Source of the DNA: Candidatus Bathyarchaeota archaeon | Lineage (GTDB): Archaea > Thermoproteota > Bathyarchaeia > Bathyarchaeales > Bathycorpusculaceae | Direction of reading: 5' to 3' | Assembly: GCA_963832745.1 (NCBI GenBank) | Contig: CAWHVC010000003.1 | Span: forward strand, 704,001-768,000 | Length of the DNA stretch: 64,000 nt | Part shown: piece by piece, positions 6,710-12,567 of the stretch | Position numbering within the stretch: the first letter of the stretch is position 1 | Layout of the letters: the number at the start of each line of letters is the position of its first letter | The notes under the pieces: generated by a model | What the model was told of the DNA's origin: nothing | Database searches by the model: none | The model's input: only the letters and a program-made list of their open reading frames with translations | Translations under genes and position numbers: made by a program

Positions 6710-7627
6710 TTAGTACATTGAAACTAAATCGTTTGCGTAAGGCAAGCCTGCCCTTGCGCCCATTGCCGTTACGCTTCTGGCTGCTACAAAATTGCCTATT
6801 CTGCCGCACTCGTAGAGATTTATTTTATTGTCTAAGAGTCCGTAGAGAAAGCCTGCGTTGAAAGCGTCGCCTGCCCCCGTGGTGTCAACTGCTTGAACTG
6901 GAAAAGCATCGACTATGAACTGTTCTTGTCCATCCGTAACATAACAGCCTTTTTCGCCAAGTTTAACAGCTACGATTTTGACGCCCATTTCAAGTATGAA
7001 GTCTGCGCCTTTACGGTAGTCAACCTCGCCTGTTAACTCTTCAAGTTCCAAGGCGTTGGGCATAAACAGGTATGAGCTTCTAATCAGGGGTTCTATTGCA
7101 GTAAGGCCTTTTTGGGCATAGAGGGCGCCGGGGTCGAAGCTGACTTTAATGTTTTTTGGCAACATGCCTGCAAGCTTTTTCTGTGCACGGAACGGTCTAT
7201 CGCCAACAAACGATGAAAGATGCAGAAAACTGGTTTGGGCAATATACTCCAGATTGATTTCTCTTGATTCTAAGGTGTCGTTCACGCCGGGGTTAATGTA
7301 TAAGGCTCTTGCGCCTTTCTTATCGACAAACCCCAGACAGACGCCGCTTTTGCCCTTTTTTGAGTGAATAATGCCGTTAGTATCAACACCTTCACTGCTA
7401 AAACAGTCAATTTGTATTTGCCCTTCATGGTCGTCGGCGATTTTTCCGATAAAACCTGCTTTACATCCAAGCCTAGCTAAACCAACCATGGTGTTTGCTG
7501 CTGAACCACCGCACGCTTCGGTGTAGTTTTCGATGAAACTTTCTTCCTCTGGACCTGCAATGCGTTCAACTTTTAGGAGAGTATCAACGTTTAATGCGCC
7601 AAAACCTATTACGTCAAGTTTATTCAT
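6710..7627 (-). CDS. PfkB/ribokinase-family kinase (EhaT-like)
   Basis: GGSAANT and VDTTGAGDAF signatures; ATG directly abuts the upstream stop (TAAATG). Confidence 0.9.
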   Translation of the reverse strand: MNKLDVIGFGALNVDTLLKVERIAGPEEESFIENYTEACGGSAANTMVGLARLGCKAGFIGKIADDHEGQIQIDCFSSEGVDTNGIIHSKKGKSGVCLGFVDKKGARALYINPGVNDTLESREINLEYIAQTSFLHLSSFVGDRPFRAQKKLAGMLPKNIKVSFDPGALYAQKGLTAIEPLIRSSYLFMPNALELEELTGEVDYRKGADFILEMGVKIVAVKLGEKGCYVTDGQEQFIVDAFPVQAVDTTGAGDAFNAGFLYGLLDNKINLYECGRIGNFVAARSVTAMGARAGLPYANDLVSMY

Positions 7628-8554
7628 TTATAACATCTCACTGAATGGGATTTTGTATTGTCCAAGTTTGCCGCCGTAGTTGCCTGCTGAAATGCGTACG
7701 ACGCCTTCAACATCAAGCACTGCTCGGATTCCGGCTTTAATGGCTTTTTTAACTGCATCCTCGTTTACGCCGTCGATGACTAGTTCCGCTATATAGTTTA
7801 CCCCGTCTGGAACAAGGGATTCCTTACCCAACCTTGCTTTGAGCGATGGGCAGTAGACATGGTTAGTTGTGGGACCAATTTCCGGGAAACGGGTTTCAGG
7901 TTTGGAGCCTGCTGAGCAAACATCAAACGACGTGACTACGCCTGGAACCGTGTGCATTGCTGCAAGAGACTTTTTCCCAGCCTCTTTCAGCGCCTGCTTG
8001 GTTGTGCACATAACCCAAAAGTTGCCGCCCATAATACCACGGGCATAGCCGATGTAGTGTTCAATTATAAAGTCTGGAACCATCAAAGGCACAACGATAA
8101 CTTCTCTGCCATAACGTTGCTCTACCCATTCATAGCCGTCGCCGCAGTGACCGACACGCGGCATCATGTCCATTTTGCCTTCTGCGTTAGGCAGGGCGTC
8201 GAAAACTGCTGTGAATGGTTTAACCAAGATATCTTGACGGATTTTGTAAGAAAGCTCTTTCTCAAACTTTTCAAGACATTTCTCAAAGCCCTTTTTCTCG
8301 TTAAGTTCTCCCCAAAACTGTAAGATTGCGCCTACTCTGCCGTCTGGGGTTTCTTTTTCGGTGAGGTAGCGTTCTACTCCTCCTTCTGTTCTGCCAATAA
8401 CGACTGACGGGGTGGCTGTTGAATCGTTAGCTGCCGCAGTCAGTGTTTCCATGTCGTCCGCGGTTACGATTACGCGGCTAAAAATTCCCTGAAACGCTTC
8501 AACAAAGGTATCATCAATAGTAACTTTCTGATTCAATTTATCCAAGTCTCCCAA
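7628..8554 (-). CDS. Formylmethanofuran:H4MPT formyltransferase paralog (Ftr-II/EhaS-like)
   Basis: [39 protein letters not shown]; divergent QDILVKPFT and GHCGDG segments relative to canonical Ftr. Confidence 0.85.
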
Positions 8555-9617
8555 TAGCTACGCCACGAACCTTCTTTCGAAATTCGCTACTTTCAGTAAC
8601 TATTGAGTTCATATTTTCGCTTGTAACTATTTGAACCTTCGGCAACACATTCGAAGACCCAAATACTTGTTTAACCAACTCTGAACCTACTCTGGCGGAT
8701 TCCAACGCTGCTTGACTCCAAGTTTCCACTGCATTAATTGTCTGGTTCCTGCCTAACCGACAGAACATGTCGGTTATGGCAGCGGTTACAAGGTTGCTCT
8801 CCGATATTACAGCAACATCGGCATTTCTAACAGCATAACTGTTACCATTAAACGAAACCGCCAAACCCCCATTTTCCCGTACCAAACGGAATGCTTCAAC
8901 ATCTGTTATGCTGTCGCCAACATACATCACGTTCTCCAATCGCCCATTAAGACGTTTGACAACGTCGCGGATGGCTTCAGCTTTCTGTTCTCCTCCGACC
9001 GTAATAACGTCGCTGAGGGCTGTTCCGACAGTCATTTTAGGAATTTCAACCCAGAAAATCTCGTCCAGCCGTTTGATAAAGGCTTGGTCTTTTGCTGAAA
9101 AGTTTTTGAGGCTTTTAGCGTTTGCTGGAATCTCAATCAGGGGCATTTGACTGATTTCTTGCGCCATTCCCCTTAGTTGGTCTCTTTCTTGCGCCGTTAT
9201 GGGTGCCTTGTCGAGGCTGACCTTGGTGCAATACGTGTTTTTGTATGGAAAATCTACTGCTTTGCATAGCGCTTTAATGTAATGCTCATAACTGGTGCTA
9301 ACAATGTAGGCGTCAGCGATTGATTGAACATGCTTAAGTGTAGTTTGTGTGCCAGCGATTAGTATGATGTTTTCAGCAGAAAACTTTTCCATCTGCTGGT
9401 CAGTTAAGCCGTAAGCCTTCAAAAAAGGCAAAATCAACCTCAAAGTGCCGCCTGCACAGTAGCCTTTTTTCTTTAAAACATCCGCCAACACGTCATCGTA
9501 CCTGCTGACGTTGCAGAAGAAGGTGTCGCCGTTTGGAATAAAATTGGCAGCTAACTCGTAGGCGTTGTCGTTTTTTGAAATTGGTCCTTCACAGTCGGAA
9601 ACAAAGATGCTCTTCAC
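8538..9617 (-). CDS. HAD-superfamily protein (EhaR-like)
   Basis: Motif [27 protein letters not shown] start at 9617 overlaps the purD stop (GTGA). Confidence 0.75.
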
Positions 9618-11029: not shown

Positions 11030-11067
11030 CCAATGACACCGTTTGATTGATAGGAAAGATTGGGGGC

Positions 11068-12567
11068 TTAATTTGCTTTTTTGCCGTCGGTATGTGTTTC
11101 TTCGACTTCGTAGATACGGTTTTTCTCCTCGTACCCTTTGAGGAACTTCTGTTTCATCTCGTCAGCCATTTTTTGAGCTAAAGGCGTTGGGTACTTGCCG
11201 GTAACACATGCCATGCAAAGCTGGTCTTGGTTTTGTCCGGTGGCTTCAATGAGTTTCTCGTGGGATTGGTAACATACGCCGTCTGCGCCTATGATTTTTG
11301 CGATTTCTTCTGGACTGTTTCTTGAGCCGATAAGTTGACCGTAAGTGGACATGTCAATGCCGTAGAAGCATGGTCCAATGATTCTTGGGAAAGTCACGAA
11401 AACGTAAACTTTTTTGGCGCCTGACTTGCGTAGTTTATCAATGATGACTTTGGTTGTATCTCCACGTACGATGCTGTCTTCACAGATTATAACATTTTTT
11501 CCAGCTACTTTGGAGCCTAAAATGTTAATTTTCTTGTCAATAGTTGAGAAACGTTCATTGTTAAGCAGGATGAAAGCTCGTTCGGTAACGTAACGGTGTC
11601 TCCTTGACGCTCGTTCCCACCGTAGCCCTGAAGCTTCATGAACACCCATGGCTGGGTCATCACCAGTTTCAGGTACGGAAAGAATGATATCGCATTCTTT
11701 TACAATATCGGGGTTTTCATAAACGATGTTTCTTCCAAAAGCTTCACGGATTTCGTAAACGTATTTACCGTTAAACCTTGAGTCTGGCCTTGCAAAGTAA
11801 GCGTATTCGAAAGCGCAAAAGGCATGCTTTGACTTTTCGATGATTTGTTGGCGGACAAAGCCGTCTTTTGTAGCGATTACTAGTTCGCCTGGAAGTAATT
11901 CAAAGTCGCGTTCAAGACTGTTCATGTCTAAACTGACTGTTTCAGACGAAAAAGCCACTGTCTGATGATCTTGGCTGTGTCCAGCGCATAAGGGTTTAAT
12001 GCCGTTGGGGTCTTTAAAAGCGAAAAAGGTTCCGTCATCTAAAATGCCTGTTACCGAAAACGCGCCGTCTAAACTTTCCATGACTCCACGTACGGCTCCG
12101 GCTAGGTCTTTTCCTTCTTTAAATCCAAGTAGGAGTTTGTGGCAGACAATGTCGGAGTCACAGGTGTAGTTGAAGTTTGAAAAGTTCTTGTACATTTCTT
12201 CTTTTAACTGTGAAGTGCTCACGATGTTGCCGTTGAATGATAATGCAAGTTTTATTTTGTCTGTTGAGCCGGTGACGGGTTGTGTTCCTTGAATTATTGA
12301 TGATTCGTCACATTTTCCTGAGGTTGTATACCTAACGTTTCCGATTCCGATTGAACCGGGGAGTCTTCCAAACCATTCGTTTATTGCTTTTGTTTTAATT
12401 TTTGGAACAAGGTCTAAGTTCTTGTAGCTGAAGAACTGGCCGTTGTTGTAGGTTAAAAAGCCGTGTGATTGGTGGCCTCGATGGTTTTGTGCTCGAAGTC
12501 CCCAGTAAACGAATGGGAAAACTGGTTGATTATTATAGTTTTTTACACCAAATATGCCGCAGCCTAT
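11068..12567 (-). CDS. purF: Amidophosphoribosyltransferase
   Basis: Frame extends upstream of the ORF call to (M)GCGIFG...LRAQNHRGHQSHG; CAFEYAYFARPDS, EDSIVRGDT, CFYGID, CMAC; apparent ATA start. Confidence 0.93.
   Translation of the reverse strand: MGCGIFGVKNYNNQPVFPFVYWGLRAQNHRGHQSHGFLTYNNGQFFSYKNLDLVPKIKTKAINEWFGRLPGSIGIGNVRYTTSGKCDESSIIQGTQPVTGSTDKIKLALSFNGNIVSTSQLKEEMYKNFSNFNYTCDSDIVCHKLLLGFKEGKDLAGAVRGVMESLDGAFSVTGILDDGTFFAFKDPNGIKPLCAGHSQDHQTVAFSSETVSLDMNSLERDFELLPGELVIATKDGFVRQQIIEKSKHAFCAFEYAYFARPDSRFNGKYVYEIREAFGRNIVYENPDIVKECDIILSVPETGDDPAMGVHEASGLRWERASRRHRYVTERAFILLNNERFSTIDKKINILGSKVAGKNVIICEDSIVRGDTTKVIIDKLRKSGAKKVYVFVTFPRIIGPCFYGIDMSTYGQLIGSRNSPEEIAKIIGADGVCYQSHEKLIEATGQNQDQLCMACVTGKYPTPLAQKMADEMKQKFLKGYEEKNRIYEVEETHTDGKKAN

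Follow-up and report, generated by a model that had tools for sequence, protein, structure and literature searches.

A purine operon in the genome of Candidatus Bathyarchaeota archaeon (assembly GCA_963832745.1) raises the question how glycinamide ribonucleotide (GAR) is formylated in archaea that encode neither PurN nor PurT. The operon is located in a stretch of 64,000 nucleotides, the window (contig CAWHVC010000003.1, positions 704,001 to 768,000), in which purF and purD are followed by genes for a HAD-superfamily protein, a paralog of the formylmethanofuran:tetrahydromethanopterin (H4MPT) formyltransferase (Ftr) and a PfkB-family kinase. The paralog, called Ftr2 after the clade name in Chadwick et al. 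2022 (PMC9012536), probably fills the PurN/PurT gap as a GAR formyltransferase linked to formyl-methanofuran or H4MPT. The original prediction had read the gene in this way, and the comparative evidence supports it: the missing PurN and PurT, the complementary distribution of the enzymes and the synteny. For Methanobacteriales, Archaeoglobi, Methanopyrus and the anaerobic methanotrophic archaea ANME-1, the GAR formyltransferase has stood in the literature as a missing enzyme since 2011 or earlier (PMC3261824; PMC9012536).

The purF-purD operon and the purine genes of the genome

Five co-directional genes on the minus strand form the operon (12567..6710 of the window):

11068..12567, minus strand: purF, amidophosphoribosyltransferase, 499 amino acids if the start is the ATA at 12567; the only purF of the genome
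9614..11029, minus strand: purD, GAR synthetase of a divergent subtype, 471 amino acids; the only purD of the genome
8538..9617, minus strand: HAD-superfamily protein of the AF1437/EhaR type, 359 amino acids, GTG start
7628..8554, minus strand: Ftr2, paralog of formylmethanofuran:H4MPT formyltransferase, 308 amino acids, TTG start; candidate GAR formyltransferase
6710..7627, minus strand: PfkB-family (ribokinase-like) kinase, 305 amino acids, ATG start

The purD gene begins 38 nucleotides past the purF stop codon. The GTG start of the HAD gene at 9617 overlaps the purD TGA as GTGA, the TTG start of ftr2 at 8554 gives a 17-nucleotide overlap with the HAD stop (more in-frame TTG codons are present at 8545 and 8536), and the ATG of the kinase gene at 7627 abuts the ftr2 TAA as TAAATG. 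The common direction and these three junctions had been noted before, and every detail was correct when the sequence was checked again. PurF is full-length and has the catalytic Cys; translated from 12567, it matched TIGR01134 with 308.4 bits over positions 1-432 (cut-off 350), the second-best match in the genome having 113.6 bits. PurD, also full-length, presented the GARS_N, GARS_A and GARS_C Pfam domains and the motifs GPNTGGMG and GDPE, with PurD structures as its nearest solved relatives. Its TIGR00877 score of 239.4 bits was under the cut-off of 288, and the second-best match in the genome had 29.5 bits.

The source genome comprises 3,021,879 bases in 5 contigs, is 99.02% complete and 4.31% contaminated. 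Profile searches of this genome revealed no match to Formyl_trans_N (PF00551), the PurN-type domain, and no PurT, the best TIGR01142 score being 47.2 bits for a 1098-residue frame (cut-off 502). Two Ftr homologs were present, Ftr2 of the window and a separate Ftr1 at C3:318496-319509. Both the expected absence of purN and purT and the expected separate canonical ftr were thus borne out. PurL was found with 679.5 bits. A run of purC-purP'-purP is located on contig 2 (C2:398123-401360), its second PurP being above the cut-off at 592.1 bits, and a search of the genome for PurH found none. PurP covers the formylation of aminoimidazole carboxamide ribonucleotide in this genome, thus the formylation of GAR is the sole formylation step without an enzyme. 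The first gene of the purP pair is a divergent PurP-like gene with 319.1 bits, well under all PurP cut-offs. PurM was represented by two overlapping open reading frames (ORFs) of 234 and 141 amino acids (C3:331338-332421), one corresponding to the N-terminal and the other to the C-terminal part of TIGR00878; the cause could be a split gene, a frameshift or a mistake in the assembly.

The closest relatives of the window's Ftr2 are encoded in metagenome-assembled genomes (MAGs) named Bathyarchaeota, Bathyarchaeia or Nitrososphaerota archaeon. Within the genus and order of the source organism, 39 of 41 genomes had the HAD gene. Among 20 loci from these relatives, PurD adjoined HAD in 19 and all five genes stood together in 13; the contig end cut four of the remaining loci, one had no purF upstream, one had the PfkB gene 3 kb off, and one was without purF and purD. 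A scan of public genomes, with a three-row alignment as query and one genome per species, yielded 80 loci, of which 64 were titled Bathyarchaeota, Bathyarchaeia or 'Thermoproteota archaeon'. PfkB followed directly after Ftr2 in all 64 of these Bathyarchaeia-labelled loci, and a co-directional PurD-HAD-Ftr2-PfkB order was observed in 49 of the 56 that had enough upstream sequence. This recurrence across the loci of relatives argues against chance as the origin of the operon arrangement. Outside Bathyarchaeia, a Mnemosynella MAG has purD-HAD-Ftr2-PfkB, a Hadarchaeota MAG has HAD-Ftr2-PfkB, and in one uncultured archaeon the HAD-Ftr2 genes and the purD and purF genes converge. The purine synteny is thus conserved, as anticipated, across Bathyarchaeia families and in the Mnemosynella MAG.

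Complementarity of Ftr2 with PurN and PurT

A sample of 201 Bathyarchaeia genomes, each at least 80% complete, was searched with five queries (HAD, PF00551, Ftr2, TIGR01142 and TIGR00877). PurD was present in 172 genomes, distributed as follows:

Ftr2 only: 69
Ftr2 and PF00551: 1 (G161)
Ftr2 and a 175-bit PurT-like match, which may be PurK: 1 (G041)
PF00551 without Ftr2: 84
PurT-like only: 11
None of these: 6

Among the six genomes of the last class, one has an Ftr2 that was seen cut by a contig end (G029, locus L042) and another has only a partial HAD and no Ftr match (G184). Of the 29 genomes without PurD, 22 had none of the markers. All three solutions occur within the single family f17 (seven PurT-like, one PF00551 and two Ftr2 genomes), and family f27 holds three Ftr2 and two PurN-like genomes. 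These mixed families point to repeated switches between the enzymes rather than one single split.

The same pattern was present in 201 genomes from the phylum of a Methanoliparum MAG. Of 82 genomes with Ftr2, 78 were without PF00551 and PurT and four had PF00551, while 114 of the 119 genomes without Ftr2 had one of the known enzymes (PF00551 in 104, PurT only in 10, none in 5). In this sample, TIGR01142 matches of at least 212 bits were taken as PurT, and 27 of 41 genomes with TIGR01142 matches had only 140-175 bits and were set aside as PurK-like; none of the 41 has Ftr2. In the phylum of a Methanobacterium MAG, an Ftr2-type match was found in 121 of 121 genomes, and in a subset of 41 neither PF00551 nor PurT was found (0/41 each). 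Anti-correlation with purN and purT had been proposed as a check, and co-occurrence was limited to 2 of 74 Ftr2 genomes in Bathyarchaeia, 4 of 82 in the Methanoliparum phylum and 0 of 41 in the Methanobacterium phylum. Genomes of the PurT type never had Ftr2 (0/11 in Bathyarchaeia, 0/14 in the Methanoliparum phylum). They are folate-independent and yet without Ftr2, which ties Ftr2 to the GAR step and not to the absence of folate.

The distribution agrees with both published surveys. Brown et al. 2011 (PMC3261824) looked in vain for both purN and purT in M. kandleri, two Archaeoglobi and four Methanobacteriales (the last appear there under the name Methanomicrobiales). According to Chadwick et al. 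2022 (PMC9012536), members of the Ftr2 clade are encoded by Archaeoglobales, M. kandleri, M. marburgensis and ANME-1, of which ANME-1 is without PurN and PurT; the authors' passages on these enzymes draw no link to Ftr2.

Five Bathyarchaeia genomes have HAD and a PF00551 match and no Ftr2 (G072, G066, G155, G050 and G042). In the first three the cluster reads purF-purD, then a Formyl_trans_N ORF of 281 to 330 amino acids, then HAD-PfkB; in G072 this ORF is spaced from its neighbours by 2 nucleotides and by a 4-nucleotide overlap. In G050 and G042 the PurN-like ORF also follows purD, and HAD and PfkB are located elsewhere. PurN was the best family of the ORF, with 74.5 and 50.9 bits (cut-off 150), and its best solved relatives were the structures of the E. 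coli GAR transformylase. Read from the alignments, it keeps N-x-H-P and L-D-x-G-P where PurN has Asn-His and Asp. The place after purD is thus taken by either of two unrelated formyltransferases in clusters that otherwise correspond to each other, which indicates that Ftr2 would act at the GAR step. This in-place displacement is the strongest single argument for such a role.

The displacement also bears on the alternative that the triad of HAD, Ftr2 and PfkB serves the synthesis or recycling of a different formylated or ribosylated metabolite, e.g., a cofactor intermediate, or frees formate from formyl-methanofuran for PurP, while the true GAR formyltransferase is encoded elsewhere, for example by an extra PurP paralog. 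PurP needs formate (PMC3261824), and the divergent PurP-like copy in the purC-purP'-purP run of the source genome would be such a paralog. However, the extra PurP copy does not follow the PurN/PurT gap: two copies are present also in G045, a genome of the PurT type, and in G096, one of the PurN type, and only one in an Ftr2-type genome (G051) and in the Methanobacterium MAG. If Ftr2 supplied formate, the PurT-type genomes would need it most, yet they are without it, which counts against formate supply. A PurN-like gene in place of Ftr2, immediately behind purD, speaks for the GAR step and not for another metabolite. This alternative is therefore quite improbable.

Several observations weigh against Ftr2 as the GAR formyltransferase. 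PF00551 denotes a domain and not PurN proper, and the PurT calls depend on the chosen score limits. Since the sampled genomes are related, the cross-tabulations overstate their independence and no probability can be attached to them. Ftr2 coexists with another candidate enzyme in G161 and G041 of Bathyarchaeia, with PF00551 in the Methanoliparum genome G232 and in G362, G373 and G426, and with a 158-bit PF00551 protein in the Hadarchaeota MAG that carries HAD-Ftr2-PfkB. Chadwick et al. 2022 (PMC9012536) report Ftr2 also in ANME-2a and 2b, which have PurN. Outside Bathyarchaeia the purine linkage is mostly absent; it was not seen at the locus of the Methanobacterium MAG (L128), and Ftr2 is solitary in Thermoproteales-labelled, Methanoliparum and Altiarchaeota MAGs. 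In the Methanoliparum phylum, 18 of 20 loci have Ftr2 without a complete HAD or PfkB gene beside it, and in 12 of the 82 Ftr2 genomes it is the sole Ftr homolog. In these 12 genomes, Ftr2 may keep the canonical Ftr activity or serve both roles, or the canonical step may be missing.

Within the Methanoliparum phylum, a purF-like gene was located 4 kb from Ftr2 in G387. Three of the 18 loci without complete HAD or PfkB neighbours, L155 (G440), L157 (G360) and L158 (G382), contain an Ftr2 68-71% identical to that of the window, flanked by remnants of 30-40 residues of the HAD C-terminus; L155 keeps in addition a remnant of the PfkB N-terminus, and G440 is the nearest row to the window in the tree. 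This looks like the transfer of a Bathyarchaeia-type cluster of which Ftr2 is the sole survivor. Two classes of PurD scores were apparent in the class sample: genomes with full-length PurN- or PurT-like proteins are mostly above 288 bits, and HAD-type genomes have about 240-270 bits. Family f21, without HAD, also has a PurD of about 240-270 bits, and G069 has a canonical PurD beside HAD-Ftr2-PfkB.

The Ftr2 clade and its HAD and PfkB partners

Ftr2 of the window contains both Ftr lobes in full length (PF01913, 147.9 bits, residues 9-157; PF02741, 182.1 bits, residues 160-306). It exceeded the cut-off of NF002554 (336.5 bits, cut-off 297) and was under that of the equivalog TIGR03119 (228 bits, cut-off 292.6), and the Pfam scan of the protein gave no match to PF00551. 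In a tree of representatives at 50% identity, Ftr2 and ten others split off with a Shimodaira-Hasegawa-like approximate likelihood ratio test (SH-aLRT) support of 99, and the other copy of the genome was placed among 42 Ftr1-type rows. A second tree included Ftr2 rows cut from the loci of Bathyarchaeia, Methanobacterium, Hadarchaeota, Mnemosynella, Methanoliparum, Altiarchaeota, Promethearchaeota and Thermoproteota MAGs, among others; here 24 Ftr2 rows were separated from 21 Ftr1 rows by a branch of length 0.6 with SH-aLRT 100. In both phylogenies, Ftr2 forms a separate clade outside Ftr1, to which the characterised enzymes belong. The EhaS homolog of Methanobacterium falls inside the Ftr2 clade. 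The scores fell into two separate groups, with 262 bits or more for Ftr2 and 197 or less for Ftr1 in the Bathyarchaeia sample, and 381 or more and 284 or less, respectively, in the Methanoliparum phylum.

Compared with Ftr/FhcD (PDB 1FTR, 1M5H and 1M5S), Ftr2 belongs to the same two-lobe fold family with about 36-40% identity, as estimated from the alignments (E 5.5e-53). It differs by an insertion around residues 80-100, by its location in a purine operon with HAD and kinase genes, and by a distribution complementary to PurN and PurT. The two clades have about 40 invariant positions in common, among them E257, which we take to be the position of the catalytic Glu of the M. kandleri Ftr; its conservation is compatible with catalysis by Ftr2. 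Other positions are clade-specific, C137, E220 and P228 in Ftr2 being F, G and A in Ftr1.

These shared features would also fit an additional isoenzyme of the canonical formylmethanofuran:H4MPT formyltransferase in one-carbon (C1) metabolism, with the purD neighbourhood and the distribution as mere lineage history. Isoenzymes are common in methanogens, and both lobes, the NF002554 score, the invariant positions including E257 and the genomes with Ftr2 as sole Ftr homolog are in line with it. Such an isoenzyme is, however, not expected to complement PurN and PurT inside the single families f17 and f27, to give way to a PurN-like gene at the same position, or to be tied to HAD and a kinase. Moreover, transcript data cited in Chadwick et al. 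2022 (PMC9012536) present Ftr1, not Ftr2, as the highly expressed form in ANME. We consider the isoenzyme the least probable of the explanations.

Fused forms of Ftr2 were not found among longer proteins at E <= 1e-20, which as a search is weak evidence; the long Ftr proteins among the representatives were Ftr1-type fusions with Fwd-like domains. Long open frames had hinted at HAD-Ftr2 fusions, and these were separate genes in the two genomes inspected (G166 and G172). In one genome, G213, Ftr2 and PfkB share an ORF of 598 amino acids (L189:2955-4751; the same sequence in L116), the intervening stop being changed to a sense codon. This single fusion may be a sequencing error.

The HAD protein is homologous to AF1437 (PDB 1Y8A, E 1.1e-29). 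The motifs D8-x-E10-G-P, S107-T-S, K212 and G234-D-S-x-x-D239 were invariant in 23 homologs; in motif I, Glu replaces the second Asp that is usual in phosphatases, and motifs II to IV are complete. The predicted structure had a predicted local distance difference test (pLDDT) score of 94.9, and 1Y8A was the best fold match with a template modelling (TM) score of 0.78. SerB-type phosphatases came next; as the resemblance to phosphoserine phosphatases was weak (TM at most 0.48), no assignment was drawn from it. Among the look-alikes in the ESM Atlas was a cluster named EhaR, to be taken as a lead only. A scan of viral contigs with the HAD protein gave no relative. In a Promethearchaeota MAG (L150), an ordinary HAD protein of 243 amino acids (PF00702, not of the AF1437 type) is encoded at 9238-9969 directly 5' of Ftr2 (9989-10876).

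The kinase matched PF00294 with 180.6 bits and the ribokinase model TIGR02152 with 168.3 bits (cut-off 299.65). Its best NCBIfam models were ribokinase and ribose-1-phosphate kinases, all far under their cut-offs, and its nearest solved relatives were generic fructokinases and ribokinases, which do not allow a substrate call.

The coupling of these two proteins to the route was tight. In the Bathyarchaeia class sample, HAD accompanied Ftr2 in 74 of 74 genomes. Of 99 genomes with PF00551 or a PurT-like match and no Ftr2, it was present only in the five that have the divergent PurN-like gene next to purD. The pair of HAD and PfkB thus belongs to the non-canonical route, be its formyltransferase Ftr2 or the divergent PurN-like enzyme. 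In the Methanoliparum phylum, five of five tested Ftr2 genomes had HAD elsewhere in the genome, two of them with a PfkB 45% identical to that of the window directly after HAD. Separate HAD or HAD-PfkB genes in five genomes had unrelated neighbours (ATP-binding cassette ATPases, S-adenosylmethionine synthetase, Nre, thioredoxin, aminotransferase) and gave no functional hint.

Ftr2 could also formylate GAR directly, with HAD and PfkB standing outside the formylation step and co-regulated in the operon for ribose-phosphate supply or for salvage of purine intermediates that have lost their phosphate. In its favour are the isolated position of Ftr2, away from HAD and PfkB, in most of the sampled Methanoliparum-phylum genomes, the intact Ftr2 with mere HAD or PfkB remnants in G440, G360 and G382, and the ribokinase and ribose-1-phosphate kinase models of PfkB. 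One kinase of the PfkB family is known to act in the salvage of aminoimidazole riboside, and PDB 1TYY is among the structure matches of the window's kinase. Yet a general salvage role would hardly account for the presence of HAD in all 74 Ftr2 genomes of the class sample and its retention elsewhere in all five genomes tested in the Methanoliparum phylum, and we regard this version as unlikely.

Proposed route to FGAR and its relation to known systems

In the route favored here, Ftr2 would move a formyl group of the archaeal C1 system onto the glycinamide amino group made by PurD, and the resulting formylglycinamide ribonucleotide (FGAR) would pass to PurL. Donor and acceptor are inferred: the donor would be formyl-methanofuran or N5-formyl-H4MPT. 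Since HAD and PfkB always travel with the route, the acceptor might be a dephosphorylated riboside and not GAR itself. HAD would then strip the 5'-phosphate from GAR, Ftr2 (or the divergent PurN-like enzyme in a few genomes) would formylate the riboside, and PfkB would put the phosphate back, with FGAR as the product. The gene order purF-purD-HAD-Ftr2-PfkB of the window matches this order of reactions. The phosphate shuttle is the weaker part of the proposal and a tentative conjecture. It would cost one ATP per purine, a PurN-like enzyme is expected to need the phosphate, and the gene order differs in other clusters: the formyltransferase gene stands before HAD in the PurN-like clusters, and G426 has HAD-PfkB-Ftr2. 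A precedent exists in the riboflavin pathway, in which a HAD phosphatase dephosphorylates an intermediate and a kinase later re-phosphorylates; the substrates and enzyme families are different from those of the proposed shuttle.

PurN yields FGAR, the product proposed also for Ftr2, and the place after purD is common to both, a divergent PurN-like gene replacing Ftr2 in three related clusters. The two differ in fold, which is unrelated, and in the formyl donor, 10-formyl-tetrahydrofolate for PurN and the proposed methanofuran- or H4MPT-bound formyl group for Ftr2. With PurT, Ftr2 would share a folate-independent solution to the GAR step. PurT, however, is an ATP-grasp ligase acting on free formate, whereas Ftr2 is without an ATP-grasp domain and its transferase mechanism would need no ATP. 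Ftr2 is a candidate for an Ftr-family enzyme with a new acceptor. Literature searches found no published link between Ftr2 or EhaS and GAR formylation, most subscription journals and supplements, possibly with gene tables, being outside their scope.

The original prediction had equated the three families of the triad with EhaR, EhaS and EhaT at the end of the eha operon, and this identity holds. In the Methanobacterium MAG, genes for a hydrogenase large subunit and two polyferredoxins are followed by HAD-Ftr2-PfkB and then by another polyferredoxin gene. The families and their order in the Methanobacteriales eha operon are the same as in the window, the Methanobacterium proteins being 45%, 59% and 49% identical to those of the window; the triad of the window follows purF-purD and not hydrogenase genes. 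Kaster 2011 (PMC3087415) names EhaS Ftr-like and EhaT ribokinase-like, holds both to be hydrogenase subunits and, in the passage on these genes, considers the annotated functions very unlikely.

A wider claim would be that many H4MPT-using archaea (Bathyarchaeia, Methanobacteria, Archaeoglobi- and ANME-1-type archaea and others) make purine C8 via an Ftr-family enzyme and a dephosphorylated riboside, as a third way to FGAR, which would give EhaR/S/T a function and link the anaplerotic Eha hydrogenase to purines. On the comparisons made here, this generalization is rather doubtful. The Eha hydrogenase supplies reduced ferredoxin for the synthesis of formyl-methanofuran. In Methanobacteria, a triad at the end of the eha operon would tie the hydrogenase to the withdrawal of formyl groups for purines.

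If the proposed function is true, the archaeal purine pathway would be closed, and three genes carried as unexplained hydrogenase 'subunits' would gain a function. The methanogenic C1 carriers would feed nucleotide synthesis directly, and the metabolic reconstructions of uncultured Bathyarchaeia and relatives, now gapped, would be corrected. The Ftr2 route could also explain the conflicting purine C8 labelling in Methanobacteriales quoted in Brown et al. 2011 (PMC3261824), as the formyl group on H4MPT can derive from CO2 or serine. The candidate is directly testable with proteins of the cultured Methanothermobacter or Archaeoglobus.

The start of purF in the window is unusual. The stop-to-stop frame extends from 12615 to 11068, and its first ATG, GTG or TTG, at 12222, would remove the glutaminase Cys. 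No such codon is present ahead of the catalytic Cys; the start at 12567 taken in the original prediction is an ATA two codons 5' of the Cys. In the corresponding region (window 12540-12620), ATA, ATT or ACG two codons before the Cys was observed also in the relatives at loci L048-L052, L086, L111 and L137, and AAA ATA GGC TGC forms the purF N-terminus in 7 of 11 relatives examined. Several relatives have in-frame stops 3-9 codons upstream, and a purine-rich stretch lies 5' of the start; other families have an ATG eight codons upstream. Translation of purF may begin at a near-cognate start and yield a two-residue propeptide. An Rfam scan of the window at gathering thresholds gave no match. On the plus strand, window 13025-15186 contains three ORFs with pilin-like N-termini or common C-terminal domains, of which the one at 14593-15186 is intact; the other two, at 13025-13279 and 13910-14401, look like a paralog of it that has been broken into two pieces.

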